Assembly (NCBI GenBank): GCA_001695645.1
Contig: LVZN01000025.1
Span: 1-24,147, forward strand
DNA length: 24,147 nt
DNA from: Erysipelotrichaceae bacterium MTC7
GTDB lineage: Bacteria > Bacillota_I > Bacilli_A > Erysipelotrichales > Erysipelotrichaceae
Direction: 5' to 3'
Within the stretch, counting starts at the first letter, position 1. Each line of letters starts with the position of its first letter. A program made the position numbers and the translations under genes. Below the pieces are notes generated by a model that saw only the letters and a program-made list of their open reading frames with translations, was not told the origin of the DNA and searched no databases. Positions 1,848 through 24,142 of this stretch are shown piece by piece.

Positions 1848-1936
1848 CATAACAAGGAAAGCGCTAGTCTGTCTAAGGGCTTCTAGTGCGCAGAAACCTC
1901 TGGATGGCAAGGGATTGCTTGAAGGGGGTTTTTGTT

Positions 1937-2917
1937 TTGTATAAAGAAGAATGTAAGTTAAAACCTTTTTTTAGCTTGGATGAACAAATTGAACGTCTTA
2001 AAACACGAGGGTTGACTATTGCTGATGAGGGAAAAGCAAAAAGATCTTTGATGTGCACAAATTACTATAACTTAGTAAATTATTATGGCAAGTACCTTGA
2101 AAATGATGGTGGGTTTGTTAAGGGGGCGACTTTCAATGAACTTCATCAAATTTCAATTTTTGATAAGCGAGTTCGATCTACTTTTTTGAACCACCTAATT
2201 CGTATTGAATCCATGCTTAAGTCTTTTGCGGCATATACTTTTTGTAATGTACATAGGGAAAAGTATGCATACCTAAATTTAAGCAATTTGGATACGGATA
2301 ATCCTTTGAAATGTGCAAAAGTCATTTCGAAAATGGCAAATACAATACAAATTCATCAAAAAAATGCCAATCACCCAATTGGACACTATGTGAATAAATA
2401 CGGACATGTTCCATTATGGGTTTTGGTGGGCTTTATTGACTTTGGAACGTTTGTTCAATTCTTTGAAAGTATGACCTTATCAGATAAAAATGCTTTGGCA
2501 AAGGAAATTTCAATTCTTTATTTTGATAACTATGGAGAAAAAGTTATTTTGACTCCAGAACAACTATTAAACTATTTACAATCCATGCAGCAGTTGCGAA
2601 ATGCTGCAGCACATGGTAATCGACTGATGTCGTTCAAATTTAGAAGTGATGTAAAATTTCATACAGAGTTATTTGCTGAGTTTGGGGTTATAGATAAATC
2701 AGCTCCTAAACAATCCATTTTCTATATATTTATGGTAATGAAATTATTTCTAGCAAAGGATGATTTTACAAACATGTTTAACTCCATTCGTAAGAGCTGC
2801 AGAAATTTATCTAATAAATTAGATTCGATTGAAATCGAAATTCTAATGAGGGAATTTGGCTTTCCAAATAATTTTTTTGAAAATCACAGTGGCTTAATTA
2901 AGAAATCAAATAATTAA
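1937..2917 (+). CDS. Abi_2 family (AbiD/AbiF-like) abortive-infection protein
   Basis: Family hallmarks are KPFFSLDEQIERLKTRGLTI, NYYNLVNYYGKYL, IESMLKSFAAYTF, PLWVLVGFIDFGTFVQFF and LRNAAAHGNRL. The ORF track opens at GTG 1886. I prefer TTG 1937 because GAAGGGGG (1921-1928) lies 8 nt upstream and leaves the usual short N-terminus before KPF. The start remains uncertain between 1886, 1904 and 1937. Confidence 0.85.
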   Translation: MYKEECKLKPFFSLDEQIERLKTRGLTIADEGKAKRSLMCTNYYNLVNYYGKYLENDGGFVKGATFNELHQISIFDKRVRSTFLNHLIRIESMLKSFAAYTFCNVHREKYAYLNLSNLDTDNPLKCAKVISKMANTIQIHQKNANHPIGHYVNKYGHVPLWVLVGFIDFGTFVQFFESMTLSDKNALAKEISILYFDNYGEKVILTPEQLLNYLQSMQQLRNAAAHGNRLMSFKFRSDVKFHTELFAEFGVIDKSAPKQSIFYIFMVMKLFLAKDDFTNMFNSIRKSCRNLSNKLDSIEIEILMREFGFPNNFFENHSGLIKKSNN

Positions 2918-7131: not shown

Positions 7132-9543
7132 ATGAATAAAAAAATAACAGGAATTTTTACAACATCGTTACTTTGTGCAACGATGGTATTACCTACGAAT
7201 ATAGGTGGGTTAGAGGTGATGCGCACTGAAAAGGTTTATGATAAAGTTCTAAATCTAGATGGAGTGAGTGAAATTACGTCAAATTATGTTGAAATTGAAG
7301 CACATAGCCACTATTCCAACCAATGGACTGAACCATTTTCTGCTTCGAACTGGATTTATGGGGAAACTAACAAATTAAGTGCCAAATCGAAATATGGAGA
7401 GGTCGAATATAGATACAAAAAGAGGAGTATAGGTGGCTATTATCCATTGACTTATACAAATGGAGTTCCAACTGACGTAGGTACATATAAAGTTGTCGCA
7501 TATGTTGAATCTGGATCACTCGGTAATGGCAACACGTATAGTGGACTTCCCGATACAAACGTCAAAACAATAACAATATCCAAAGCAACCAATGTATGGG
7601 AAAAGAACGTTAGTATTGATGAAGTAATTTATTTAGGTAATCCGATAAAACCATCTGCAAAAGCAAAGTTTGGTACAGTTACTTACACATACTATAAAAC
7701 ATATGATAATGGAGTTCATAATGATGGGCCTGTTACACCTAATAAAGTAGGAAAATACTGTGTCCATGCCTCGGTACCAGGTAGTGATAACTATACAGCA
7801 TTAACTGGAAATTATATTAGTTATGCAACTTTTGAAATTAGGGTACACCAAAATAGTTGGACAACGAATTTACGTGCTGATGATTGGACATATGGCGTTG
7901 ATGCAAATATTACCTTTGCTGAATCGGAATATGGCGAAGTACACTATACATATGAAAAGCGTATAGATGAAAATACATGGATATGTATTAATGATATGCC
8001 TGAAAATGTTGGAAAATATAGGGTAAAAGCATACGTTGTATATGGTGAGGGTGATGCTGAGCTCTATCAGCCATTAGAAACAGAGTATGATGAGTTCGAA
8101 ATTTCACAAGCTAAGAATGAATGGTTAAATGATTCTGGTAGTGTAACACTAGAAGGTTGGGTGTTTGGTGATGATGCAAATGAACCAGAAAATAATTTGA
8201 ACCCTAAATTCGTTGACGATAACCTTGTTTATGAATACCAAGTAAATGGTGAAGGAGATTTTTCAGAAGATGTTCCTGAACAAGCAGGTACCCATAAGGT
8301 TAGAGCATATATTCCAGAAACAGACAACTATAAAGAGTTATACAGTGATACTGTAGATTTCACAATAGAAAAAGCACCAAATAAATTGGATGGAGTTCTA
8401 GTAATGGAAGGTTGGGCATATCATGAAGATGCAAAACAGCCATCTGCTAGTGCTGAAAATGGAACAATAACAAAATATGAATTCAAACTTCAAAGTAAAG
8501 GTGATGAAGCGTATAGTGAATATGATGCTAATAGCAAAGATCGTCTTAAGGTTGGAACCTATGTGATTCGTGCCGTTGTTGATGGTGGTGATAATTATGT
8601 AAGTTTCGCATCTGAACCAGTAGAATTTGTTGTTTCTAAAGGTAATAACTCATGGGAAGAAGCTGTTGTATTGACTGTAGAAGACTCGACATACGGAAAT
8701 ATTAAGTTACCATCGTTTACTGGGAAACCAGAATTTGGAGAAGCAGAGCTTCAATACAGTACATCTCCTAATGGACCATTTACAACAGATGAGCCAGAAA
8801 ATGCAGGCGATTACTTTGTTAAAGCGGTAGTTAAAGCAACAACAAACTACAATATATTGGAAAGTGAACCAGTTGCATTTACAATCAATAAAGCTGTTCC
8901 AAACGCATCACATCAAACATTAAAGGTTAAATTTGGAACATTAAAAGAACAAATTGATGCACTACTAGCAGATGGATATGCATTAAGAGGAACACCTCGA
9001 CTTGCTTTATTTAGAAGTACGGATACAAACCACAATGCTGCTGAATTAGCAGGTGTTGGAATTTACACATTTGATGGAGTATACACACATGCTGATAGTA
9101 AAAACTATGTAACAAAAGATGTATTAATTATTGTACATGTTGAAGCATTGGATATCTCTAACTCTGTCGATTTATCAAAACTTGAAGAATTGAAAGATGT
9201 AGATTCTTTAGTTGTAAAACATGATGGTGTAGTTCTTGAAGAAGGAAAAGACTATACAGTTGAAACAATTAAAGGGGCACAAAATAAAGTAGAAATTACT
9301 TTTATTGGAAACTACACAGGAAAAATCACGAAAAATCTTAAGAGTGAAAGTCCTGCAACGGCTCCAACGGAAACTGGTAACACAGGATCAACTTCAAATA
9401 GTTCGACAACAACAGGAGGTGCATCGACAGGATCAGGAGCTGTGAATGCTGGTGATACAACTAACAGTGCAGGATTGATGTCATTGTTGTTAGGAATGGC
9501 TGGAGTTGTAACATTCTTCACAAAGAAAAAATTATCAAAATAA
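7132..9543 (+). CDS. Repeat-built cell-surface protein (803 aa)
   Basis: The SD AAGGAGAGG precedes the start and the N-terminus looks like a signal peptide (MNKKITGIFTTSLLCATMVLPTNIGG). The protein has six tandem ~88-aa modules and a Ser/Thr/Gly stalk (TGNTGSTSNSSTTTGGASTGSG). The C-terminus reads AVNAGD, then a hydrophobic helix, then a KKKLSK tail. Confidence 0.85.
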   Translation: MNKKITGIFTTSLLCATMVLPTNIGGLEVMRTEKVYDKVLNLDGVSEITSNYVEIEAHSHYSNQWTEPFSASNWIYGETNKLSAKSKYGEVEYRYKKRSIGGYYPLTYTNGVPTDVGTYKVVAYVESGSLGNGNTYSGLPDTNVKTITISKATNVWEKNVSIDEVIYLGNPIKPSAKAKFGTVTYTYYKTYDNGVHNDGPVTPNKVGKYCVHASVPGSDNYTALTGNYISYATFEIRVHQNSWTTNLRADDWTYGVDANITFAESEYGEVHYTYEKRIDENTWICINDMPENVGKYRVKAYVVYGEGDAELYQPLETEYDEFEISQAKNEWLNDSGSVTLEGWVFGDDANEPENNLNPKFVDDNLVYEYQVNGEGDFSEDVPEQAGTHKVRAYIPETDNYKELYSDTVDFTIEKAPNKLDGVLVMEGWAYHEDAKQPSASAENGTITKYEFKLQSKGDEAYSEYDANSKDRLKVGTYVIRAVVDGGDNYVSFASEPVEFVVSKGNNSWEEAVVLTVEDSTYGNIKLPSFTGKPEFGEAELQYSTSPNGPFTTDEPENAGDYFVKAVVKATTNYNILESEPVAFTINKAVPNASHQTLKVKFGTLKEQIDALLADGYALRGTPRLALFRSTDTNHNAAELAGVGIYTFDGVYTHADSKNYVTKDVLIIVHVEALDISNSVDLSKLEELKDVDSLVVKHDGVVLEEGKDYTVETIKGAQNKVEITFIGNYTGKITKNLKSESPATAPTETGNTGSTSNSSTTTGGASTGSGAVNAGDTTNSAGLMSLLLGMAGVVTFFTKKKLSK
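7315..8895 (+). repeat. Six tandem ~88-aa (about 264-nt) divergent protein-coding repeats
   Basis: Each module reads N-x-W ... W-x-YG ... (S/A)-K/E-(Y/F)-GE/T-V-x-Y-x-Y ... P-x-x-VG-x-Y-x-V-x-A-x-V ... NY ... F-x-I-x-KA. Module starts are near aa 62, 153, 240, 328, 416 and 505. The repeats are diverged at the DNA level. Confidence 0.75.
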
Positions 9544-11155: not shown

Positions 11156-14100
11156 ATGAAAGAGAGTAAGATTCGCAAATTATTGTATATTGCGCTTGCA
11201 ATCTTTATTGGTTCTACAGTCGTTGTGCTGTCCAGCAGCAAGCTTAAAGCAGCTACAGAACCTGTAGAATTGGTAAAAGGTATCACGGAAACCGAAGGAA
11301 TCCCAGATAGTTTTAAAGCAAGCGCAAAAGAACAACTTATTTTGGATGTCGATTTTTGGGATCAAAAACGAGATCAAATCATGTTTGAAGGAAATGAATG
11401 GCGTTACATCAATTTTACAACAGATGAAATGAAGGGTGGTAAACCACAGTTGCTTGGAGATGTTGTAGCAATGAAAACGGGAGCGCGTACTTCATATAAT
11501 CTAACCCAAGACATGTTCAAGCAATGGTATGATACAGTTCCTGGAAAATCAGTTCATATAAAAGGGCAATTACCACTTGAGAAAAATGTACGAAATGGAA
11601 TCACCTATTATGAACTGGATCGAACCGGAACGAATAATTACTTTTATGCACTCGATGAAGAATTATTTGTTGGTGAAACCGGAAAAGCAACAGCTGATGC
11701 CTTTAGTACAAAAAGAACAGCCGATGGAAATGTACTAAAAAATCATCACTGGACGATGCGTGCACAAACAAAGTTTACATTCGTTGGTGGTGAAGTGTTT
11801 GAATTTAGTGGTGATGATGATGTGTGGGTATATGTAGGAACAAACCCTGATGAAGGAAAACGGATTCTAAACTTAGGCGGATTGCATCCACAAGAAAGTG
11901 GCAGCGTTGCATTCAATCATGATGGTTCCATTACGAATACTTCCTATATGAATATACCGAATTTTCAACCACTGCATACTGACGATAGAGCAGGAACTGG
12001 TGTAGCAAAAACGATTACGGATGTATTACCAAATAACGGTGGTCCTCTTGAGGTTGGACAAACATACTATCTGACTATCTTCTATGCAGAACGTCATACG
12101 AATCAATCGAATTTCAAAATGTCGACGTCGCTTGAACTGGATGCCTACGATGTAATGAAGAGAGGGACATTAACTGATGATGGAAACTATGTTGATTATG
12201 AAGTTGAAGTTCGTAATGATGAAAACTACAAACCAATCACCATTCAAAAAGTTGCCGACTACATGAACTTAGGAGAAGCATACGCAAATAGTGGTGGATT
12301 TGTGCCATTCAAAGAAACGGCAAATGGGCCAGGTGTTCAATTGCAGTATGCCTTTGTACAAAGTAATGGACAAGCTGGTACGTATAGAAATGCTTATGTA
12401 GCAGGAGCAGCAAATGATGCAACTGCATTCATGTTATCCCAACCGATTCAGTTGCTTGGCAAGTCACAGGCAGGAGAGCGCACAAATGATGCATCTGATA
12501 TCGTTATCTTCAGATATCAACATGTAGTAACAGAAGAAGAAAAAACGCATGGTGAGTTCTATAACAAATTTAGTGTACGTACACTAAACGATCCAAGTAG
12601 CGATCAGGCGATTATTAGTACGGGTGAAGTAGATATACAAATACCTCGCGTACAAGTGTATAAAGAAGTTGCAGCATATGATGAAAGTAAACGTTTTGTA
12701 GATCATGCATTTGCGACAACGACAGAAAATCATCCGTTATCACTATTACTTGGTGAAAAGGTTCTGTATAAAATCACGCTAAAGAACACGAAAGATGCTA
12801 GTGCAACGGTAGCGTTTCAAGATATCTTACATGTACCAGGAGTTGAAAACAATATCACTGACGTTCTTTTAGATGTGGATGGAACACCGTTATCTCTATC
12901 TATTACAAATGGATTCACGCCAATTATAGTTGAAAAGGGTCGGGATGTATCTTTCTATTATGTAAGTTCACCAAGTGTACTAGGTGAAGAAATCAATACA
13001 GCACGTATTGAAAACGTTGATGAGAAGACTGTTGTGGATCTAGATCACGCTGAAAAGAGTGTATATGTAAAAGTTGATGCACCAACCTTTACACTAACAA
13101 AAGCAGTAGCTGCTTACAATGAAAAAGAAAGTCCGGTAAATCACCAGTTTACAACATTTGACAATGGAAATCCGATACCAAATACTGTGGTTGGTGTACC
13201 AAAAGGCATGAAAGCAATCTTTAGGGTTGATATTACAAACGTAAGTGAACTTGATGGTACAGTTAAAGTAACAGATGTCTATGGTGTAGCAGGTGGACAA
13301 GAAGATATTGGCGCGAAACTAGTTGATGCACTAGGTGGATCAATCGTAATGGAGCATGGTGAACTTACAATTCCAGGAGGAAATACGGCATCACTTTACT
13401 ACATCACGGATGCCCTGGATGCTGCAAAAGATGATAGTGGTACGACATACATTAACACGGTAACCATTGAAAACATGACATACCCTGGCGATGAAAACAA
13501 TGGTGAAGATTCATACACTGCACAAGCGCAGGTTACAGCAAAAATCCAACCAGCACTTGAGGTGCAAAAGTTTGTTGCGCAGTATGATAAGGACATGGAA
13601 TTAACTGATCATGCATTTGGTGAAAACCTTCAATTGGAACATAAAGCTGAGGCTGCATACAAAATCTTGATTCAAAACGTTGGACAAGGTGAGGCAGAAT
13701 TTACATTTGCAAAAGATGTATTAGAAGGACTTGCTTATGGTCCAAATGGAAAAGCAGTAGCTATGGATGCGATGAAAGTGTATCAAAATGGTCAAGAAAT
13801 TGATCTAGCTGAAGTTTCATCTTTTACTGTTAAATCCACAACGCCAATTACGATGTACTATGTAGATGATACGGAACTGTTAGGAAACGTAGATGCTGAA
13901 GCATACCGCAATAGTTTTGCCATTGAAACAGATCATGTTGTTCAAGAGGAAGATAAACAGGCAACAGTAGACTTCACAGTAAAAGCACAGGCAAGTTTTG
14001 ATGTCCAGAAACAAGTTGCATTGTTTAGTGAAGATACACCAATGGAATATGCTGATAAAGTTGATGCAAACATTGGGGATACCGTGATCTTTAAAATTGA

Positions 14101-14827
14101 GGTAACAAATACAAGTGATGTAGATGGTCGTTACAATCTGATCGATGTGTTGAACAAACAAGGCATTGTTTCTAAGTTATTGAACGAAGATATGCAAATC
14201 GCATATCCTGATGGAAATGCAGTGAATATTGCTATTGCAACAGGTGCTAGTCATACCTACTTCTATAAGATGGATGAAATTGCTTATAACAATGGTGAGA
14301 TATTAAACGAAGTTATGGTTGAAGACAGTGATAGTGAAAACACGGTTAAAGATGAGGCGAAAGTCGTAGTTGATCCATACTTAGTATACGATGTTCATTA
14401 TTATGTGCTTGATGGAGATAAATTTGATGAAGCTAAAACGGTGAAAGTTCATGTGGATCAAAGATTTATTCTCTATGACCAACTTGAATTGGTTGCACCG
14501 ATGAAGAAACTAGATACTGGTTATAACTGGAAACTACACAGTGTCTACTTTGTCGAAGACGGTAAAGAAGTGGCATTCAAGCAAGATGATGGTGCCATCA
14601 TTACACACAAAAACAAGTTGTTTAATGTGTACTATGAGCCGCAACAAAAACCAACACCATTACCAAGTGTTGATCCACCAGTGATGCTTCCAAGTATTGC
14701 CCCTCCAGTAGCGCTTCCAAGTGTTGCAACAGGAGATAAAGTGAATATTGGAATCTTAATAAGTATGTTTGGTGTGGCAATCATCTATCTAGTTGCAAGA
14801 TCGAGTCGTAAAGGCAAGGAGGAATAG
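11156..14827 (+). CDS. Large surface protein with a fibro-slime/PA14-like N-terminal domain, five DUF11-like modules and a wall-anchor-like C-terminus (1223 aa)
   Basis: The signal peptide is ...IALAIFIGSTVVVLSSSKLKAA. FSGDDDVWVYVG and IFYAERHTNQSNFKMSTSLEL are the hallmark strands of the fibro-slime (TIGR02148) / PA14-like domain. Five ~150-aa modules follow, then a MucBP-like module (YDVHYYVLDGDKF...), a Pro-rich linker, LPSVATGD, a hydrophobic helix and an RSSRKGKEE tail. Confidence 0.85.
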   Translation: MKESKIRKLLYIALAIFIGSTVVVLSSSKLKAATEPVELVKGITETEGIPDSFKASAKEQLILDVDFWDQKRDQIMFEGNEWRYINFTTDEMKGGKPQLLGDVVAMKTGARTSYNLTQDMFKQWYDTVPGKSVHIKGQLPLEKNVRNGITYYELDRTGTNNYFYALDEELFVGETGKATADAFSTKRTADGNVLKNHHWTMRAQTKFTFVGGEVFEFSGDDDVWVYVGTNPDEGKRILNLGGLHPQESGSVAFNHDGSITNTSYMNIPNFQPLHTDDRAGTGVAKTITDVLPNNGGPLEVGQTYYLTIFYAERHTNQSNFKMSTSLELDAYDVMKRGTLTDDGNYVDYEVEVRNDENYKPITIQKVADYMNLGEAYANSGGFVPFKETANGPGVQLQYAFVQSNGQAGTYRNAYVAGAANDATAFMLSQPIQLLGKSQAGERTNDASDIVIFRYQHVVTEEEKTHGEFYNKFSVRTLNDPSSDQAIISTGEVDIQIPRVQVYKEVAAYDESKRFVDHAFATTTENHPLSLLLGEKVLYKITLKNTKDASATVAFQDILHVPGVENNITDVLLDVDGTPLSLSITNGFTPIIVEKGRDVSFYYVSSPSVLGEEINTARIENVDEKTVVDLDHAEKSVYVKVDAPTFTLTKAVAAYNEKESPVNHQFTTFDNGNPIPNTVVGVPKGMKAIFRVDITNVSELDGTVKVTDVYGVAGGQEDIGAKLVDALGGSIVMEHGELTIPGGNTASLYYITDALDAAKDDSGTTYINTVTIENMTYPGDENNGEDSYTAQAQVTAKIQPALEVQKFVAQYDKDMELTDHAFGENLQLEHKAEAAYKILIQNVGQGEAEFTFAKDVLEGLAYGPNGKAVAMDAMKVYQNGQEIDLAEVSSFTVKSTTPITMYYVDDTELLGNVDAEAYRNSFAIETDHVVQEEDKQATVDFTVKAQASFDVQKQVALFSEDTPMEYADKVDANIGDTVIFKIEVTNTSDVDGRYNLIDVLNKQGIVSKLLNEDMQIAYPDGNAVNIAIATGASHTYFYKMDEIAYNNGEILNEVMVEDSDSENTVKDEAKVVVDPYLVYDVHYYVLDGDKFDEAKTVKVHVDQRFILYDQLELVAPMKKLDTGYNWKLHSVYFVEDGKEVAFKQDDGAIITHKNKLFNVYYEPQQKPTPLPSVDPPVMLPSIAPPVALPSVATGDKVNIGILISMFGVAIIYLVARSSRKGKEE
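12146..14380 (+). repeat. Five ~150-165-aa DUF11 / conserved-repeat-domain-like modules
   Basis: Modules start near aa 331, 499, 645, 801 and 948. The last four open with x-[VL]-x-K-x-VA-x-[YF]-x-[ED] (VQVYKEVAAYDE, FTLTKAVAAYNE, LEVQKFVAQYDK, FDVQKQVALFSE). These contain a G-x-x-[VA]-x-[YF]-[KR]-[IV]-x-[IVL]-x-N strand (GEKVLYKITLKN, GMKAIFRVDITN, AEAAYKILIQN, GDTVIFKIEVTN). Confidence 0.65.
14660..14737 (+). repeat. Imperfect 27-nt tandem repeat (2.9 units) encoding LPS-x-x-PPV-x
   Basis: The units are 14660-14686 (LPSVDPPVM), 14687-14713 (LPSIAPPVA) and 14714-14737 (LPSVATGD). The last, truncated unit forms the anchor-like motif. Confidence 0.7.
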
Positions 14828-16553: not shown

Positions 16554-17567
16554 CTATGATGTGATTTTGCTAACGAGTTGATTGAATTTTGTAATACGAG
16601 CCAGCCCATAGGATATAAGAAAGGTGAGCAGGCAAAGGATGATGTAGAAAATTAATGTGTTTTGCATAAATGAAAAGCGCAATACTTTTTGCATCCCGAT
16701 GATGATCATTGGATGCAAGATGTACATGTACAAACTGATGTTACGCAGTTGTACATTTCTTGGTTTGGTTTTTGCAATCAAAAATCTAAACAAGCAATAG
16801 CTAAACGGTAATAAGGATAGGTACATCGTATTGTTGATATCAGAGCGAATCCATTGCAATTTGTATACCAATAAACCTTCCGTTACGAAAGTGACAAAAC
16901 AAATAAGGATATCAAAGTAACTGGCTTTTATTTTATGTTGGCGACTTTGTTTAGCTAATAGTGCGCCAAGCACAAAAAATACAGGTGCCATAAATAAACC
17001 ATTACGTGTGGTATCAAAGACTTGAAAGATTATGTCATAGAAACCAGCAAGCACAGGAATATTTTTTATAAGACCGTAATAAGAATCACCAAACATTCCA
17101 ATGAGATATAACAAGGTTGTAAAAAACAGTGAAGATTTAATGTTAAATGTTTTTAGAAATAACCAAGCAATCCAGGCACCCACTGCGGATCCCACAAAAA
17201 ACCAAAGGTGATAGAACGTACCATTGAATAAAAACTGTTGCAAGAGCGTTTTGATGTTTGTCCAGTTTGCATAGCTACCACCAATAAAGTTGAATGGTAA
17301 ATAGATAATGATACATAGGATGTAGTACTTGATGTTGGTTTTCATAAATTGATGAACGCGACTACTTGTTTGACTGTCGATGTGTTTAAACAAGAAGAAC
17401 GCCGAACTGATAAAGAAAAAAGGTACTGCAATTCTGGCAATAATTCTGGTATATGCATAATCCAGTGTTGGATCAAGAGATTGAAAAACTGGATAATGCG
17501 CAGCGATAACAAGTAAAGCTGCAACGATTCGAAAGTAGTCAATTCTTCCATATTCTGTGTGTTTCAT
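16554..17567 (-). CDS. Membrane acyltransferase, Acyl_transf_3 family
   Basis: The 337-aa product is polytopic (about 10 hydrophobic helices). The N-terminal RIDYFRIVAALLVIAAH is the family-typical opening with the catalytic His. The SD GAGGGGG precedes the start. Confidence 0.8.
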   Translation of the reverse strand: MKHTEYGRIDYFRIVAALLVIAAHYPVFQSLDPTLDYAYTRIIARIAVPFFFISSAFFLFKHIDSQTSSRVHQFMKTNIKYYILCIIIYLPFNFIGGSYANWTNIKTLLQQFLFNGTFYHLWFFVGSAVGAWIAWLFLKTFNIKSSLFFTTLLYLIGMFGDSYYGLIKNIPVLAGFYDIIFQVFDTTRNGLFMAPVFFVLGALLAKQSRQHKIKASYFDILICFVTFVTEGLLVYKLQWIRSDINNTMYLSLLPFSYCLFRFLIAKTKPRNVQLRNISLYMYILHPMIIIGMQKVLRFSFMQNTLIFYIILCLLTFLISYGLARITKFNQLVSKITS

Positions 17568-17580
17568 GTAACCCCCTCAT

Positions 17581-17633
17581 AAAAAAGCTATAACCATCTT
17601 ATCACAACTGATAGGATCGTGTTATAGCTTTTT
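17581..17633 (-). terminator. Long-stem hairpin/terminator between the 117-aa gene and the acyltransferase gene
   Basis: Perfect 13-bp arms AAAAAGCTATAAC / GTTATAGCTTTTT enclose an inner TATCA/TGATA sub-stem. On the minus strand the hairpin is followed by T6, then the SD and ATG of the acyltransferase. It overlaps the stop codon of the 117-aa gene. Confidence 0.55.
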
Positions 17634-17985
17634 AGTTATGTCGATATCTGGTTAAGGTCATAGTCAATTGATTTGAAGTGTACTGTACTTGTGCTTCATC
17701 AATTAATGAATTGAGTAAATCAAATTCAAATTCATTACTTAGATCACTGGTGCCAGCAAGATTCCAAAACATTTCCTCTACGGCTTCTAAGCGATTGCCA
17801 AATAATTTGTGATCCAAATCATCCACCATGGATTGGTACATTTGTTTGTAGTCGCATTGTAGCTGAATGATGTGTGCATCCTTTTCCTCTTTAATATGGA
17901 TGTGAATATCGTTAGCACCAATGGCATATGCGTATGTGGTAAGTTCTTCGGAAATCTTACTTATGATGCGTTTGGTGTGTCTCAT
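17632..17985 (-). CDS. Hypothetical cytoplasmic protein (117 aa)
   Basis: The ORF is clean and its ATG overlaps the stop of the upstream gene (ATGA at 17982-17985). The product is acidic and has no motif I recognise. Confidence 0.6.
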   Translation of the reverse strand: MRHTKRIISKISEELTTYAYAIGANDIHIHIKEEKDAHIIQLQCDYKQMYQSMVDDLDHKLFGNRLEAVEEMFWNLAGTSDLSNEFEFDLLNSLIDEAQVQYTSNQLTMTLTRYRHN

Positions 17986-18887
17986 GAAACCACTTTGTAT
18001 GCAGGATCAATGTCGCACAATTCTTTAAACGTATCGATTTCAATGATATCACCTTCGTGGACCGGCTTGATATGCACTTTGTAGTGGTCAAGGCATTCAC
18101 GCAAGGCAACCTCATCCCAGTATTTTTCTTTTCCCCCTGGGCTTTGGTAAACACTTTGAATATCATTTGCCAGTTGTTTTCCATCGCTTTCACTCCAGTA
18201 GGAAATACCATACATGTGGTGACAGTTTTTACCACCAACTGCTAACTCGGTGATGATTCCTTTTTTTGAGTAGAAACACCAGTCATCAGTAACATCGACT
18301 TTTTTACCAAGATAGTTACTGTCATACTCGTAAGCACGAATGATGTCTGGGTTGTATAGGACTAAGTCCGATTCAAGTACATATGCATTTTGCATGATAT
18401 CTTTCGCAAGAAATGCACTTGAGATATTGTTTGCTTCATTATAGAAATCATTGTCGATAAATGTAATCATTGGATATTTTGTAAGTAAGGTATCAAATTG
18501 TTCCTTCAAGTATCCACGAACAATGGTAATATCTTCAATACCCGCTGCAAGTACTGCATCAAGTAAGGTATCGATGATGCGTTCTCCTTTTACTTTGATT
18601 AATGGTTTTGGCGTATTTAAGGTTACGGGAACCATTCGGCTTCCAAATCCTGCAGCCATAAAGATGGCACGCTTTACTTTGTAAGGTGCAAGTGCTTCAT
18701 ATCCTTTTGCTGTGATTTCGTATTTTGATTTGCCTAATACTTCAAGATAACCAAGTTCATGGAGTTCTTGAATGGCTTTATTGACAACGCCAAGCGATAC
18801 ATCGAGTTGCTTCGCAATGTCACGTTGTGCATATTTTTCTTTCTTTTGGGTGAAAGTAACAAGTACTTCAAATTGTTGATGTGTCAT
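17982..18887 (-). CDS. Winged-HTH fused to a LicC-like nucleotidyltransferase (phosphocholine cytidylyltransferase family)
   Basis: The N-terminal ~60 aa (YAQRDIAKQLDVSLGVVNKAIQELHELGYLEV) read as a MarR/wHTH domain. Next comes AIFMAAGFGSRMVPVTLNTPKPLIKVKGERIIDTLLD, the NTP-transferase G-x-G-x-R loop plus the P-K-x-L motif seen in LicC and sugar-phosphate nucleotidyltransferases. The SD AGGAG precedes the start, and there are ATGA overlaps at both ends of the gene. Confidence 0.75.
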   Translation of the reverse strand: MTHQQFEVLVTFTQKKEKYAQRDIAKQLDVSLGVVNKAIQELHELGYLEVLGKSKYEITAKGYEALAPYKVKRAIFMAAGFGSRMVPVTLNTPKPLIKVKGERIIDTLLDAVLAAGIEDITIVRGYLKEQFDTLLTKYPMITFIDNDFYNEANNISSAFLAKDIMQNAYVLESDLVLYNPDIIRAYEYDSNYLGKKVDVTDDWCFYSKKGIITELAVGGKNCHHMYGISYWSESDGKQLANDIQSVYQSPGGKEKYWDEVALRECLDHYKVHIKPVHEGDIIEIDTFKELCDIDPAYKVVS

Positions 18888-20218
18888 GTTGATCTCCTAA
18901 TTTCTTCCTTTAGTGTATCATCTTCTTTGGTTTTTGAGAACAGTGCTTGTTGCTGCCTGCGCCTTTGTTTGGCAAAGACCTCAATGATGGGTAAAACAAA
19001 CAAGGCAACCAGTCCTGCTGAGAACCCATTGTTGTACAAATTGATGCCACCATGATAGGCACCGATACTTTGTACCAAGCCAAGATGAATCATACCGGTA
19101 ACTAGTCCAGCAATCAGACCAAACTGTCCTGCAATCGGAGCAAGTCCTGTTGCAAATAAAGCAGCTAATAAGATGGTCGGATCTGCCAAATTTGAACTGC
19201 TTAGGGCACCTGCGATAAGAACACCAAGTACTAAAGGAAAAGTATTGCGAATGTGTTTTCCAAAACCAGCAAATCCGACGATGGTTAAAATCCCGCCAAT
19301 GGTTGGTCCATTGATACTCCCTTTAACAAGAAGTACATAACTCGTGTAAACAAGACCGAGTATGCCCATATTAAATAGCACAGTTGCACAACCATCACTA
19401 CGTACAAAATCACTAACCAAACGACCCGAGCGTTTTAGTAACGTTCGATACTGTTGGAATACGTTATGGTCTAACAACCAGGCAATTACGATAAAGGATA
19501 TCCATAAGCCATATAGAAATGTAGCAACACCGAGATGCAAGGAGGAGTACCAGTGCAAAACTGGAGCACTTTCATAACCCACCTGACAAAGGATGGCATA
19601 TATAATCGTTCCAGCTAAGCCGGCACCAAAACCAACGTTATACAAATTGTAACCTTGATGGACGGCTAGGCATGCATTGGATACCGGAGCTAAAAAGAAA
19701 CCAACCAGTATGGTAAAGATACATGCAACAAGCAAAGCAACCATTGTGTTGTCATGCCATAAAGCCAGTTCACTGGTTAAAGGTGCTAGACTTGTACCAA
19801 AAAAAGCGATGTAAATGTATTGGCGGAACGGATGCTTTTGAAATCTTGCATAAAGATATACGCCAAGGACAATTCCCCAAATGTTGACAATATTTTTACC
19901 AAACATACCAAAGCCACCCATAAGAAATACCGCAGCAATGGCCATACCACTTAGTTTTGCTTTTGCTAAATGAAGCATCCCCACGGATACCAACATGAGT
20001 AAACCAGCATTCACAAAGGTTGCCCCAAAGCCAGCAAGTTCTACATAATCGGTGATGAGCTTATCGCCTTTCGTGATGATGGCTACTAAGCCAGAAAGAA
20101 TGGTGCTTGGACTGTCCAATAAAAAAGCACTACCTAGAAAGATAAGTGCAAAAAAAATAAGAAATGTTTTAATTTGATGGTCTTGTGTCTGTTGAAGTTT
20201 CGAAATATTATCTTGCAT
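18884..20218 (-). CDS. Polytopic membrane protein with an internal two-fold duplication (possibly DUF1576 family)
   Basis: The 444-aa product has about 12 hydrophobic helices. The N and C halves align: LITDYVELAGFGATFVNAGLLMLV vs LVSDFVRSDGCATVLFNMGILGLV; GGFGMFGKNIVN vs GFAGFGKHIRN; YNVGFGAGLAG vs YNNGFSAGLVA. The family name is from memory, and no transporter family was recognised. Confidence 0.65.
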   Translation of the reverse strand: MQDNISKLQQTQDHQIKTFLIFFALIFLGSAFLLDSPSTILSGLVAIITKGDKLITDYVELAGFGATFVNAGLLMLVSVGMLHLAKAKLSGMAIAAVFLMGGFGMFGKNIVNIWGIVLGVYLYARFQKHPFRQYIYIAFFGTSLAPLTSELALWHDNTMVALLVACIFTILVGFFLAPVSNACLAVHQGYNLYNVGFGAGLAGTIIYAILCQVGYESAPVLHWYSSLHLGVATFLYGLWISFIVIAWLLDHNVFQQYRTLLKRSGRLVSDFVRSDGCATVLFNMGILGLVYTSYVLLVKGSINGPTIGGILTIVGFAGFGKHIRNTFPLVLGVLIAGALSSSNLADPTILLAALFATGLAPIAGQFGLIAGLVTGMIHLGLVQSIGAYHGGINLYNNGFSAGLVALFVLPIIEVFAKQRRRQQQALFSKTKEDDTLKEEIRRST

Positions 20219-20452: not shown

Positions 20453-22147
20453 ATGAAAGAAAAACTATATTTACATGACAATGTGGCAATCATTAATTTT
20501 GATTTAGCATACCCTACAACTATGTCGGAACTACTTGGTTCAAGATCGTTAGGATTGTTTGCGAAAAAATATTTTAAACACTTAGAAAAACGTGATCCTG
20601 ATATGTATGCATGGTTAACCAATGGGTTTACGATGGATCAGGCAACACGCGCTTTATCACGTGTATTCCGTCAGTTGATCGTTATGAACCCTGATGAGAT
20701 TGATGATTACTACTTGACTGATAAGAAAAAATTATTGGAGTTTGTTGAAGGACTTTACAACTACTGGAAAAGTCACCAACGTTTCTCTTACACAAGACAA
20801 CGTTATACAGGAAGAAACTCTTCTAGTTTCGTACTTTCGGATTCTAATTTTAATACGTTACTTCGTAGTACATACCGTTTCCTTGAACAAAAACTACAAG
20901 GAAGAAAAAGTGGGGTATACCGCCAGTTACAAGCAGGGACAAACTCTGCCATGTCTACATACCGTCCACGCAAACTAACATTCCCAGAAACATACAAAGC
21001 ATACGCGGACATTCCAATGATTGAAGCTGTTATGTTGCGTACACCAATGATCTTAACAACAAGATCAAACAAACGTACAGGTATGTTTGAAGAAACAAAT
21101 GCAAACCCAGTAGAATACTTTACTGGAGATAAAAGTACTTGGTTCTGTTACCCAGCCAAAGTTGGTGCTTTATTAGTACATATCTATTTCCACCGTGACT
21201 TTACATGTAGTGGAGTATCACTAGCAAACTTGTTTGAGCTTGCTTCACCAGAAGAAGCGCAACAAAAACCAGATGCAATTGTACAATTTGCAAATGAAGA
21301 TGGTAAGGCTGAAACAACATTCTACTATGATGCAGAAAACGAACTATACGTTGGTAACGTATCGTACATGCAACAAGCAGAATACTTTGGATACATGAAG
21401 AAAATGGTATTAACATTACATAACTTAGTTATGATGAGACGTGGATGGTTACCAATTCACGGTGCCTTTGTGAATATCACACTATACGATGGTAAACGTA
21501 AAGGTATTATGTTAATGGGTGACTCAGGTGCTGGTAAATCTGAATCCATTGAAGCATTAAAAGCGTTAGGTAACGATGTGATTAAAGACATTGAAGTTGT
21601 CTTTGATGATATGGGAACCATTCATATTGAAGATGGTGTGCCTTACGGACAAGGAACAGAGATTGGAGCATTCATTCGTTTGGATGACTTGGATCCAGGA
21701 ACACCTTACCGTGATATGGACCGTTCAGTCTTTATTAACCCTGATGTGTTAAATGCACGTGTTATTACACCTGCTGCACCATATAGCGTGATTGCACGTA
21801 ACCACAAGATTGATTTATTCTGTTATGCAAATAACTACGATACAGATCTTGGTATGCGCAACATTGAAGATATGAATGAAGCAAAACCAATCTTCGTGGA
21901 AGGTAAACGTATGGCAAAAGGTACAACACAAGAGGTTGGACTTTCAACAACATACTTTGCAAACCCATTTGGACCAATGCAAAAACAAGAAGTTTGTGAC
22001 CCTATCATTGACGAAGTCTTTGATACATTAAAAGCAAACAACATCTACGTTGGAGAAATCTTCACACACTTAGGTCTTGACCGTGGTGATCGTGATGGAA
22101 TTAACGTAGCTGCACAAGAATTACTAAAATTTATCCAAGAAGGATAA
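20453..22147 (+). CDS. Uncharacterised P-loop protein of the PEPCK/HPr-kinase fold class (564 aa)
   Basis: LPIHGAFVNITLYDGKRKGIMLMGDSGAGKSESIEAL resembles the HprK P-loop (GxSGxGKSE) and the PEPCK kinase-1a context. RYTGRNSSSFVLSD echoes PEPCK (F)TGRSPKDK(Y/F)IV. VVFDDMGTIHIEDG sits where PEPCK has LIGDDEHGW, but the His is missing. The SD GGAGGT lies 6 nt upstream. Confidence 0.6.
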   Translation: MKEKLYLHDNVAIINFDLAYPTTMSELLGSRSLGLFAKKYFKHLEKRDPDMYAWLTNGFTMDQATRALSRVFRQLIVMNPDEIDDYYLTDKKKLLEFVEGLYNYWKSHQRFSYTRQRYTGRNSSSFVLSDSNFNTLLRSTYRFLEQKLQGRKSGVYRQLQAGTNSAMSTYRPRKLTFPETYKAYADIPMIEAVMLRTPMILTTRSNKRTGMFEETNANPVEYFTGDKSTWFCYPAKVGALLVHIYFHRDFTCSGVSLANLFELASPEEAQQKPDAIVQFANEDGKAETTFYYDAENELYVGNVSYMQQAEYFGYMKKMVLTLHNLVMMRRGWLPIHGAFVNITLYDGKRKGIMLMGDSGAGKSESIEALKALGNDVIKDIEVVFDDMGTIHIEDGVPYGQGTEIGAFIRLDDLDPGTPYRDMDRSVFINPDVLNARVITPAAPYSVIARNHKIDLFCYANNYDTDLGMRNIEDMNEAKPIFVEGKRMAKGTTQEVGLSTTYFANPFGPMQKQEVCDPIIDEVFDTLKANNIYVGEIFTHLGLDRGDRDGINVAAQELLKFIQEG

Positions 22148-22156
22148 AAGCAAGAA

Positions 22157-22189
22157 GGCATTTCACATATTGTGGAGTGTCTTTTTTTT
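22157..22189 (+). terminator. Rho-independent terminator after the 564-aa gene
   Basis: Stem GGCATTTCAC / GTGGAGTGTC (three G-U pairs) with loop ATATT, followed by T8. Confidence 0.65.
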
Positions 22190-22243
22190 GCCTGTTTTCA
22201 TCATAAAGTTCTCTAAAAAATGCCAAAAAACATGAGAATTACA

Positions 22244-22292
22244 ATAATATAGCATATAACTGTCACAAATTGTCAATTATATGCTATATTAT
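22244..22292. promoter_or_regulatory. Perfect 16-bp inverted repeat overlapping an extended -10 upstream of the ATPase gene
   Basis: The arms are ATAATATAGCATATAA (22244-22259) and TTATATGCTATATTAT (22277-22292), separated by a 17-nt spacer, CTGTCACAAATTGTCAA, that carries a TGTCA direct repeat. The right arm contains TGCTATATT (TGn plus a -10-like hexamer). The SD GAGGGGG and the ATG at 22313 follow. Confidence 0.5.
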
Positions 22293-22312
22293 ACGAAAGA
22301 GGGGGTACACGT

Positions 22313-23524
22313 ATGATTTATTTTACTGTTAAGATTCATGGTCTTTTTTCGTTTAGGAACTTTACAGCAGATTTCACTTACGCAAGAAAGGCCAAAAATG
22401 ATGAGTTACATCAAAGCCTAAAAAACTATCCAAATGTACGTTATCGAAAACTAAATATCGTGATGGGTGCGAACTCGAGTGGTAAATCAACGTTAGGGAA
22501 ACTGTTATGTATGATATCCAACTATGTTTCAGGAAGAGATATCCAATCAGTCATTAATATTGATTTGGCTAAAATGTGCCAAGAAAACCAACCATACTTT
22601 GATGATATATACTTTGAAACCATCTATTATCACAAGGATTATATGTATCAACTTCATGTTTCCTTTGATGGTGAGGGGGTTGTAAGTGAAACTTGGAAAC
22701 GAATTAAACTCGCAAAAAAAGATACATACAATGATGCAGTTGCAAAGCTCAGTAAGGTTGGGAAGGAAAATATCGAGACATACAGTCGTAGTGAGAGTGG
22801 TATAACGTTTGGTTTCAAAAGTCCCGAACTTTCAAAATCTGTGTCAAAGTACAATTTGCTAGGACAAGTATCGTACTTATATAGTTTTCAACAGTTTGAG
22901 GTCAATCGTAGAGTTGAGAGTTCCATTCCAGAGTCAAAAACATTGCGTGATCGTTTGCTCAAAGTTTTTGATCCATCTATCGCCTCAATTGATCCAATCA
23001 CATCCATTGTTGTAGATGAAGATGGGATTGAAGAAGTTGTAGATTTGAATATGGAGCGAATCCGTTTTGTGAACGGGCGAAAACAGGATGTTGATTTTGG
23101 TAAGGAATTGACAAGTGAAAATACGACACTTTCCACAGGAACGATTGAAGCCATCCATTTAGCACATGTATTGCATAAGATTGACCGATATAGTGTTGTC
23201 TATTTGGATGAAACCATGGTGCACTCGCATCATGAATTAGAACCTTACATTTTGCAGTACATTATGAAGGTGCTTGAAAAAAATGAAATGCAGTTATTTT
23301 TTACCACACATAGCACAGAGGCACTTGAACTAGACATACCAAATTACAACGTGATGTTTATGCGTAAATCTAATAGTGGATATACGGAAGAAATAATCAA
23401 ACCAGTTGATTCAATGAAACACAACAAGCGAAGCTTAGTCAATGCTTTTGTGAATGATCAATTTTCGACATCACCTGATATTACCGAGTTATTAGACTTG
23501 ATTATGGAGTTTGATGATGACTAA
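22313..23524 (+). CDS. ABC-type ATPase of the AAA_21 class (AbiLi/RloA/AriA-like)
   Basis: The 403-aa product has an N-terminal beta-hairpin opening (IHGLFSFRNFTADF) and Walker A GANSSGKST (Lys58). It also has a signature-like LSTGT, Walker B VVYLDE and an H-loop in FFTTHS. A long insert between Walker A and the signature motif is typical of SMC/OLD-like ATPases. Confidence 0.8.
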   Translation: MIYFTVKIHGLFSFRNFTADFTYARKAKNDELHQSLKNYPNVRYRKLNIVMGANSSGKSTLGKLLCMISNYVSGRDIQSVINIDLAKMCQENQPYFDDIYFETIYYHKDYMYQLHVSFDGEGVVSETWKRIKLAKKDTYNDAVAKLSKVGKENIETYSRSESGITFGFKSPELSKSVSKYNLLGQVSYLYSFQQFEVNRRVESSIPESKTLRDRLLKVFDPSIASIDPITSIVVDEDGIEEVVDLNMERIRFVNGRKQDVDFGKELTSENTTLSTGTIEAIHLAHVLHKIDRYSVVYLDETMVHSHHELEPYILQYIMKVLEKNEMQLFFTTHSTEALELDIPNYNVMFMRKSNSGYTEEIIKPVDSMKHNKRSLVNAFVNDQFSTSPDITELLDLIMEFDDD

Positions 23525-24067
23525 AAGCTATACGTTGACAGAAGGACAGTGTGAGCTTCGATTGATTCGATTTCTTAAAGACGTTCATCATATTCCATTT
23601 GGAAAAGTCATTAAGAAAAATATTGTGACAACACCAAAGCAAAAGTTATTGTCCATACATAGACTTACAACACAATCGAAAACGTATGGACGGTGTATCT
23701 TGTCTTTGATGTAGATGTGATTATGAATGGTGAAGTTAACATGACTCAAATAATTGAGAAAATACAAAGTCTAGAGAAAGAAGAGAATATTGATGAGGTT
23801 ATATGTTTGTTGCAAGTTAGTTTTGAACACGAACTTTGTAAAATCACAGGGTTGAAGCAAAAGGAACTTTTCCGTCTGTTTGATGCAGTAGGAAAACATG
23901 AATTTTCATCGAACTTCATAAAGTGTAACGACCATAAAATACAAAACATTTTGACTTATCAAAAAGATGGTTTGATGTGCCTTTGGGACAATAATCATAT
24001 TGCCTTAACCAAAAAGTTCAAGGATTATAATATCAAAATATCTAGTTTTGGAAACATGATAAATTAG
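23514..24067 (+). pseudogene. Toprim/RloB-like partner gene interrupted by a 1-nt frameshift (ORFs 23511..23714 and 23693..24067)
   Basis: The first frame starts inside the ATPase stop region (TTGATGATGACTAA) and carries YTLTEGQCELRLIRFL, the Toprim-like Glu motif. The second frame is open from 23663 and carries VYLVFDVDV, the Toprim DxD motif, upstream of any ATG. Adding one A to the A4 run at 23679-23682 yields one 184-aa ORF, since 554 + 1 = 555 nt is divisible by 3. Confidence 0.65.
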
Positions 24068-24087
24068 TGATGTTTATTGTAATTTAA

Positions 24088-24142
24088 AAGTGGACCATTT
24101 TCATGGCATGTTGCCATTGAAAAAGGGACCACTTGTTTTTTT
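24088..24142 (+). terminator. Strong Rho-independent terminator closing the ATPase/Toprim module
   Basis: A hairpin of about 21 bp (AAGTGGACCATTTTCATGGCA - TGT - TGCCATTGAAAAAGGGACCACTT, with one mismatch, one bulge and one small internal loop) is followed by G then T7. Confidence 0.8.

Follow-up and report, generated by a model that had tools for sequence, protein, structure and literature searches.

AbiL, PARIS, MADS3-4, Gabija and OLD are grouped together as systems that combine an ABC ATPase with a Toprim protein (PMC11464382, PMC13064643). In PARIS, AriA holds AriB until a trigger releases it, whereupon AriB cleaves tRNA (PMC11464382); PARIS moreover behaves as a type II toxin-antitoxin (TA) system, and for AbiL, whose mechanism is unknown, a PARIS-like mode has been raised as a possibility (PMC13064643). 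We analyzed a 24,147-bp contig of Erysipelotrichaceae bacterium MTC7 (hereafter the window, meaning that whole stretch of DNA), whose final 1.9 kb hold a two-gene module, an ATPase gene followed by the gene of a small partner. We judge that this module is likely a divergent, self-contained AbiL-type cassette, made of an ABC/Rad50-like AAA_21 ATPase and a small OLD-type Toprim nuclease resembling AbiLii, with its effector broken in this genome.

The first gene encodes an intact ABC-type ATPase of 403 amino acids (aa). The Walker A, signature, Walker B and H-loop motifs assigned to it by an earlier reading of the DNA letters (the sequence-only reading) were all found in place (Table 1), and their residues, together with a C-terminal N...P motif, proved invariant when nine ATPases of the family were aligned. 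The protein passed the Pfam AAA_21 model (32.3 bits, gathering cutoff 27) and had as its best PADLOC match AbiLi (PDLC02335; 98.8 bits, E = 7.8e-29, profile positions 54-291 of 326), with a second AbiLi model matched at 8.4e-12. The PADLOC models of AriA, mad3, HEC-01A, PDC-M38A, GajA and PtuA scored at least 17 orders of magnitude weaker than AbiLi, similarity to the SMC_N, RecF and AAA_23 models was weak, no NCBIfam model came near its cutoff, and a PDB sequence search with the ATPase gave 0 matches at E ≤ 0.01. An AlphaFold model computed from a 3-sequence alignment had a predicted local distance difference test score (pLDDT) of 37.4 and was unusable. The closest relative, P0003, encoded on the metagenome contigs L001-L003, was 65% identical, and the search of genome contigs with the ATPase returned no relative. 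AbiLi was matched by the ATPases of relatives as well, at 1e-26 to 1e-29. Since tblastn of the ATPase against PLSDB revealed no similarity to any lactococcal plasmid, this protein represents a branch distant from AbiL.

The second gene is annotated as two "hypothetical proteins", A4S06_11335 and A4S06_11340, which are two parts of a single nuclease gene split by a frameshift, with frames A and B that jointly span 23514-24067. Its start codon (ATG at 23514 or 23517) lies before the ATPase stop codon (TAA, 23522-23524), giving a gene overlap of 8-11 nucleotides (nt), and is preceded by GGAG at 23506-23509. The two motifs reported for the partner, TLTEGQCE and VFDVDV, were also present, the former in frame A and the latter in frame B, which encodes the conserved helical C-terminal half as well. 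When the window was aligned with the DNA of L001, a single 1-nt gap appeared, in the cgAAAAcg of the window (23679-23682), downstream of the Glu motif (23532-23555) and upstream of the DxD motif (23702-23719), and the frame A fragment ends at a premature stop past this point. The intact orthologue P0005 (L001-L003) is uninterrupted, overlaps the P0003 ATPase gene by 8 nt and is 183 aa long, close to the length of about 184 aa that had been anticipated for the repaired partner. The gene is otherwise clean, with frame B open to the orthologous stop. Because the frameshift lies between these two motifs, a complete active site is possible in neither of the annotated fragments; as sequenced, the effector is thus dead, and the system is probably inactive in MTC7. 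Programmed frameshifting was considered and rejected as not credible, because the site (TCG AAA ACG) is no slippery heptamer, its A-run is only 4 nt long and all homologues are uninterrupted.

The partner belongs to a small protein family. Searched exhaustively with phmmer, 1.84 billion representatives yielded 23 proteins at E ≤ 1e-3, all of 164-199 aa except the 334-aa P0023 and the two fragments from the window (65 and 114 aa), and word-index homologue searches with the repaired partner or its orthologue each returned only themselves. The sequence-only reading had described the partner as unusually small, which was overstated: about 165-200 aa is normal for the family, and the AbiLii model of PADLOC is itself only 170 positions long. 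The family alignment followed the pattern hhhhEGxxE ... hhhhDxD ... Q..(N/F)xExEL, with G10, D65, D67, E104 and E106 invariant and E9, E13 and Q100 near-invariant, and all of these Toprim-type residues were retained in the window partner. Scored against a family hidden Markov model (HMM) from which the window protein and P0005 had been left out, the repaired partner reached 100.3 bits and its fragments 32.3 (5') and 67.1 (3'), while the best of 2000 shuffles reached 9.9.

AlphaFold2, given the family alignment as input, predicted for the partner (pLDDT 91.5, predicted template modelling score 0.86) a beta-alpha-beta-alpha-beta-alpha-beta core, with strands at 3-8, 30-33, 58-65 and 92-100, followed by the helical C-terminal half. 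The predicted arrangement of this core is that of a classical Toprim domain, and the model displayed the features by which an OLD-type Toprim is recognized: the Glu motif just past beta1, the DxD motif at the end of beta3, acidic residues after beta4 and a core of four strands. The C-terminal half, which the sequence-only reading could not place, is a conserved and confidently predicted helical part of the family, and one member aligns end to end along positions 365-523 of GajA; it is therefore unlikely to be a novel add-on.

The assignment of the partner to Toprim is supported transitively, through its homologues, its motifs and its predicted topology. Individually, nine of the 22 family members matched PADLOC AbiLii (best 2.4e-7), six matched Pfam OLD-like_TOPRIM (PF20469, best 2.4e-5), three a GajA C-terminal model and two RloB (PF13707, best 1.9e-3); matches to OLD-like_TOPRIM_1 (PF24395, 6.8e-4), mad4 (0.0014) and PDC-M38B were also obtained within the family. 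These matches, of which those to Pfam models all lie below the curated cutoffs, converge on one superfamily. Moreover, when the Toprim domain of P2 Old was aligned to the family HMM, its EG..E and DxD fell in register (10 bits, a score reached by 1 of 2000 shuffles), and hhalign against six GajA Toprim domains from plasmids gave weak support (local P = 0.002, probability 14%), both motifs again falling in register in the extended alignment.

The pair recurs as a unit. At all 13 related loci an ATPase of the same family (366-432 aa; 209-513 bits against the ATPase-family HMM) is directly followed by a partner of 167-199 aa, at a spacing of -53 to +12 nt (one partner being truncated by a contig end), and there, as in the window, the two are separate genes in the same order. 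This pairing at 13 of 13 loci, the AbiLi match of the ATPase (E = 7.8e-29), the E/DxD/ExE residues of the partner family and the profile matches of its individual members support the proposal that the module, like the AbiL/RloAB/PARIS class, joins an AAA_21 ATPase to a small partner of Toprim type.

Two of the 13 pairs lie in phages, two beside phage genes and one on a mobilizable plasmid. In the complete human-gut phage NatCom_17901 (L018, PV036423.1, 3001-4600), the pair, both genes of which are annotated as hypothetical, lies on the opposite strand, flanked by the genes of the portal and the large terminase, a classic moron position, and in the Acinetobacter prophage Ab105-3phi it adjoins the integrase. 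One locus adjoins lambda-like head genes, another a phage tail gene and a HigB toxin gene; the plasmid copy is carried by a 12.7-kb mobilizable Acinetobacter plasmid, and a further locus is set among RES/HEPN, DUF2971 and Fic genes. Three neighbourhoods, those of the window, L001 and L014, are of housekeeping type. The two closest loci, in the window and in L001, are non-syntenic, so the cassette has moved; it is a horizontally moving element, whose relatives occupy phages, a plasmid, positions next to phage genes and unrelated sites on chromosomes. Apart from the window's own protein, a word-index search of 5.8 billion proteins found just two relatives of the ATPase, and tblastn of the partner-family proteins against plasmids found nothing. 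A 41-aa divergent open reading frame (ORF) upstream of the pair in L001 was examined as a third component and rejected, as it has no counterpart in the window.

The inverted repeat that the sequence-only reading had placed ahead of the module stood up well, with the arms and folding score given in Table 1. Its inner 31 nt (22253-22283; CATATAACTGTCACAAATTGTCAATTATATG), a palindromic element also given as CATATAAYTGTCACAAANNGTCAATTATATG, recur almost identically upstream of the orthologues at L001 6918-6948, L002 6585-6615 and L003 2335-2365, in spite of unrelated intergenic DNA on either side and of no more than 48-65% identity between the proteins. Since the palindrome is conserved amid unrelated flanks and overlaps the -35 element, spacer and extended -10 element of the only plausible promoter, it suggests a candidate operator. 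Its half-site was not above chance elsewhere in the window, and profile scans recognized no DNA-binding domain in either protein of the cassette. The claim that the module has its own promoter held in part: the promoter-like region is conserved in the orthologous locus of L001, but the number of promoter-like matches was not above chance (13 observed, 9.0 ± 3.2 expected). The same applies to the flanking terminators, where both hairpins with T-runs folded better than shuffled sequences (z = -4.2 and -4.4) but a simple terminator scan found 0 and called neither. The 22145-22195 hairpin is likely an intrinsic terminator insulating the 5' side of the module, and the 24088-24142 hairpin likely the intrinsic terminator of the operon.

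Table 1. Features of the ATPase-partner module, in positions of the 24,147-bp window.
Feature	Position	Strand	Details
Hairpin and U-run just past the stop of the upstream 564-aa gene	22145-22195 (hairpin 22150-22191)	+	-18.9 kcal/mol, z = -4.2
Inverted repeat, 22-nt arms, 5-nt spacer	22244-22265 / 22271-22292		91% complementary, fold z = -6.7
Promoter-like site: -35 GTCACA, 17-nt spacer, extended -10 TGCTATATT	22262-22290	+	9/12 match, TG present
Shine-Dalgarno-like GAGGGGG, 7 nt 5' of ATPase ATG	22299-22305	+	Read from sequence
AbiLi-like ABC-type (AAA_21) ATPase, 403 aa, intact, A4S06_11330	22313-23524	+	Pfam, PADLOC, motifs
ATPase Walker A GANSSGKST, aa 52-60, K58	22466-22492	+	Read from sequence
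ATPase signature LSTGT, aa 273-277	23129-23143	+	Read from sequence
ATPase Walker B VVYLDE, aa 295-300	23195-23212	+	Read from sequence
ATPase H-loop TTHS, aa 331-334	23303-23314	+	Read from sequence
Toprim-type partner, 5' fragment, frame A, A4S06_11335, 65 aa	23517-23714 (from 23514 with alternative ATG)	+	TLTEGQCE at 23532-23555
Frameshift site, A4 run with one base missing relative to the intact orthologue	23679-23682	+	DNA alignment to L001
Toprim-type partner, 3' part, frame B; A4S06_11340, 114 aa from internal ATG	23663-24067 (open)	+	Homologous from about 23681
Frame B motifs: DxD VFDVDV; Q; FEHEL	23702-23719; 23813-23815; 23822-23836	+	Read from sequence
Long hairpin (24088-24134) followed by GTTTTTTT	24088-24142	+	-21.7 kcal/mol, z = -4.4, 0/200 shuffles as good

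The contig terminates 5 nt past the downstream terminator-like hairpin, and an additional component or the boundary of a mobile element could still lie beyond its end. Immediately 5' of the module, a 564-aa protein (20453-22147, + strand) carries the P-loop-like GDSGAGKSE and had as its sole match PEPCK_ATP, below threshold (3.3e-5; 23.2 bits, cutoff 26.5). On the - strand, a cluster at 16554-20218 comprises a DUF1576 membrane protein (444 aa), a winged-helix and nucleotidyl-transferase fusion (301 aa), a 117-aa ORF without a match and an Acyl_transf_3 acyltransferase (337 aa), and by its domain content looks like a small cell-envelope modification operon. Two long + strand ORFs (7132-9543, 803 aa; 11156-14827, 1223 aa) matched no Pfam family above threshold, and their weak matches, to Sgo0707_N2 and PA14, suggest uncharacterized surface or adhesin-like proteins. 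At 1886-2917 (+ strand) the window encodes a 343-aa Abi_2/AbiD-family protein (Pfam Abi_2 1.3e-33, PADLOC AbiD 3.5e-52), upstream of which an 830-bp stretch (1056-1885) is without any ORF of at least 100 aa. No Rfam family matched anywhere in the window.

PARIS and P2 OLD offer an analogy for the mechanism: the ATPase may serve both as a sensor of infection and as the keeper of the small Toprim partner to which it is translationally coupled, so that the cassette would probably be PARIS-like in its logic. Expression would start from the cassette's own promoter, overlapped by the possible operator palindrome, with the terminator-like hairpins flanking the unit. In combination with the ATP cycle, a cue from the phage would release or switch on the Toprim effector, whose E/DxD/ExE acidic cluster would bind Mg2+ and cut nucleic acid, either tRNA or DNA; this cutting would stop translation or replication and the infection would be aborted. 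Among the known systems, tRNA is the target of cleavage in PARIS and P2 OLD, and DNA in Gabija.

Several observations weigh against an AbiL-type defence cassette. The effector is frameshifted here, and neither its fragments, nor its repaired form, nor the orthologue P0005 had a relevant match in Pfam, PADLOC or NCBIfam; the AbiLii profile was reached by none of them even at E ≤ 10. PDB sequence and profile searches with the partner and the family alignment likewise gave 0 matches even at E ≤ 10, and Foldseek comparison of the partner model with PDB and BFVD returned nothing below E = 0.02, hence no structural match to a solved Toprim/OLD nuclease. The family-member matches to Toprim-type Pfam models, moreover, all remained below the curated cutoffs. 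The profile searches advised by the sequence-only reading thus recovered AAA_21 and AbiLi for the ATPase and none of the expected families for the partner, with AbiLii, OLD-like_TOPRIM, RloB and GajA being matched by its homologues only; that reading had expected of the partner a Toprim/RloB-type match in profile or structure, and taken to the letter the outcome for the partner itself speaks against it. The window, furthermore, is no defence island: the module sits among housekeeping and surface genes, and in profile scans the AbiD gene, about 20 kb away, was the sole other defence match. Finally, while the data show the homology of the two proteins, their conserved motifs, the pairing of the genes and the frameshift, the anti-phage role, the sensor/effector logic and the substrate are inferred by analogy.

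Other explanations were weighed against the same data. The system could be functional, the frameshift being a homopolymer sequencing or assembly error and the full 184-aa Toprim partner being made, which we regard as unlikely though deserving serious attention. The lesion is indeed only one base in an A-run, and both halves of the gene are clean, frame B staying open for 134 codons to the orthologous stop with all invariant and near-invariant family residues retained. However, no other long ORF in the 24-kb contig is interrupted, the longest reaching 1223 aa, so that the assembly bears no visible sign of being prone to indels and a real mutation is mildly favoured; in the deposited annotation the two proteins are kept apart, and an exact-pattern scan of metagenome contigs, with A3 to A6 allowed, found no second copy of the frameshift region for comparison.

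A TA-like addiction module, in which the Toprim protein would be the toxin, the ATPase the antitoxin and the maintenance of mobile elements the main role, would fit the occurrence of the family on a small mobilizable plasmid and in phages and prophages, as well as the overlapping genes and the operator-like palindrome over the promoter, an arrangement shared with many TA operons; PARIS itself acts as a type II TA system (PMC13064643). We nevertheless hold it to be improbable as the main role, as the closest named relatives (AbiL, PARIS, OLD and Gabija) are all demonstrated defence systems and neither protein has a recognizable DNA-binding domain for autoregulation, and TA and defence roles are in any case not mutually exclusive. 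Finally, a housekeeping DNA repair or recombination pair, consisting of a RecF/Rad50-like ATPase and a Toprim nuclease and unrelated to conflict with mobile elements, is very improbable: the weak similarity of the ATPase to SMC_N, RecF and AAA_23 and the housekeeping neighbours at the window, L001 and L014 speak for it, but it is opposed by the extremely sporadic distribution found in the word-index search, the lack of synteny between the two closest loci, the copies inside phages and on a plasmid, AbiLi rather than RecF/SMC as the best profile, and a gene dispensable enough to be frameshifted here. A divergent AbiL-type cassette with a broken effector thus stays our likely reading.

As a find in MTC7 this is fairly ordinary and of modest interest, being a divergent copy of a known kind of module with a broken effector and no defence island around it. 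Its wider value is that it adds a divergent, rarely sampled branch to the known class of ABC ATPase and Toprim defence systems (OLD, Gabija, PARIS, AbiL, MADS3-4), a branch whose small effector is picked up by none of the tested models from PADLOC, Pfam and NCBIfam. It is possible, and we put this forward tentatively, that these loci form a distinct, unnamed clade of AbiL-like ATPase and mini-Toprim systems on phages, plasmids and chromosomes of Bacillota and Pseudomonadota, missed by current defence finders because the effector falls below every existing profile, and perhaps having a trigger and a nucleic-acid target of its own, as well as a promoter controlled through a palindromic operator. 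An improved model of the AbiLii type could be built from the alignment of 26 sequences and the 13 paired loci, and the phage-borne copies (NatCom_17901, Ab105-3phi) and the intact L001 orthologue are ready-made candidates for testing.

Compared with the described systems, the cassette shares with RloA/RloB and with MAD3/MAD4 of MADS the combination of an AAA_21-type ATPase and a small Toprim-like partner, and its ATPase weakly matches mad3. These matches are marginal (RloB 0.0019 at best, mad4 0.0014, NCBIfam MAD3 18 bits against a cutoff of 420), and, unlike in those systems, a restriction-modification context and other MADS genes are absent from the window. With P2 Old (class 1) and GajA (class 2) it has in common the ATPase-plus-Toprim chemistry, with EG..E and DxD of the partner family in register; this similarity is at motif level only (10 bits; hhalign P = 0.002). 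Unlike the single fused polypeptides of about 580 aa in Old and GajA, the two domains are here encoded by separate genes. Gabija also requires GajB, a UvrD-like helicase, and bona fide GajA loci examined for comparison encode proteins of 572-591 aa followed by a helicase gene, whereas no helicase gene is present next to the module in the sequenced flank, which the contig end cuts 5 nt past the terminator. Identity with Gabija or class 1 OLD was rejected, the domains being unfused and a helicase gene being absent from the available flank.

PARIS, too, pairs an ABC ATPase with a separate Toprim effector and is the likely model for the sensor and keeper logic. AriB of PARIS is a DUF4435 protein of about 35 kDa; the partner, at about 21 kDa, is about half the size of AriB, and neither it nor any of the 22 family members matched DUF4435. 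The AriA models scored 8.3e-9 for this ATPase, as against 7.8e-29 for AbiLi, and identity with PARIS was rejected on account of the missing DUF4435 and the weak AriA scores. The nearest described system is AbiL of Lactococcus lactis, from which the module differs in that the window partner and its orthologue do not reach the AbiLii model and in that the effector is frameshifted here; membership of the AbiL type holds for the ATPase and the operon structure, and only indirectly for the second gene. The partner, at about 184 aa, is comparable in size to the 170-position PADLOC AbiLii model and to the "123/206 aa" figure given for the AbiLii superposition (PMC13064643). As in AbiL, the two genes form an operon with the ABC/Rad50-like ATPase first and the small Toprim/OLD-like protein second, AbiLi is the best profile of the ATPase, and AbiLii is the most frequent match among members of the partner family (9/22).

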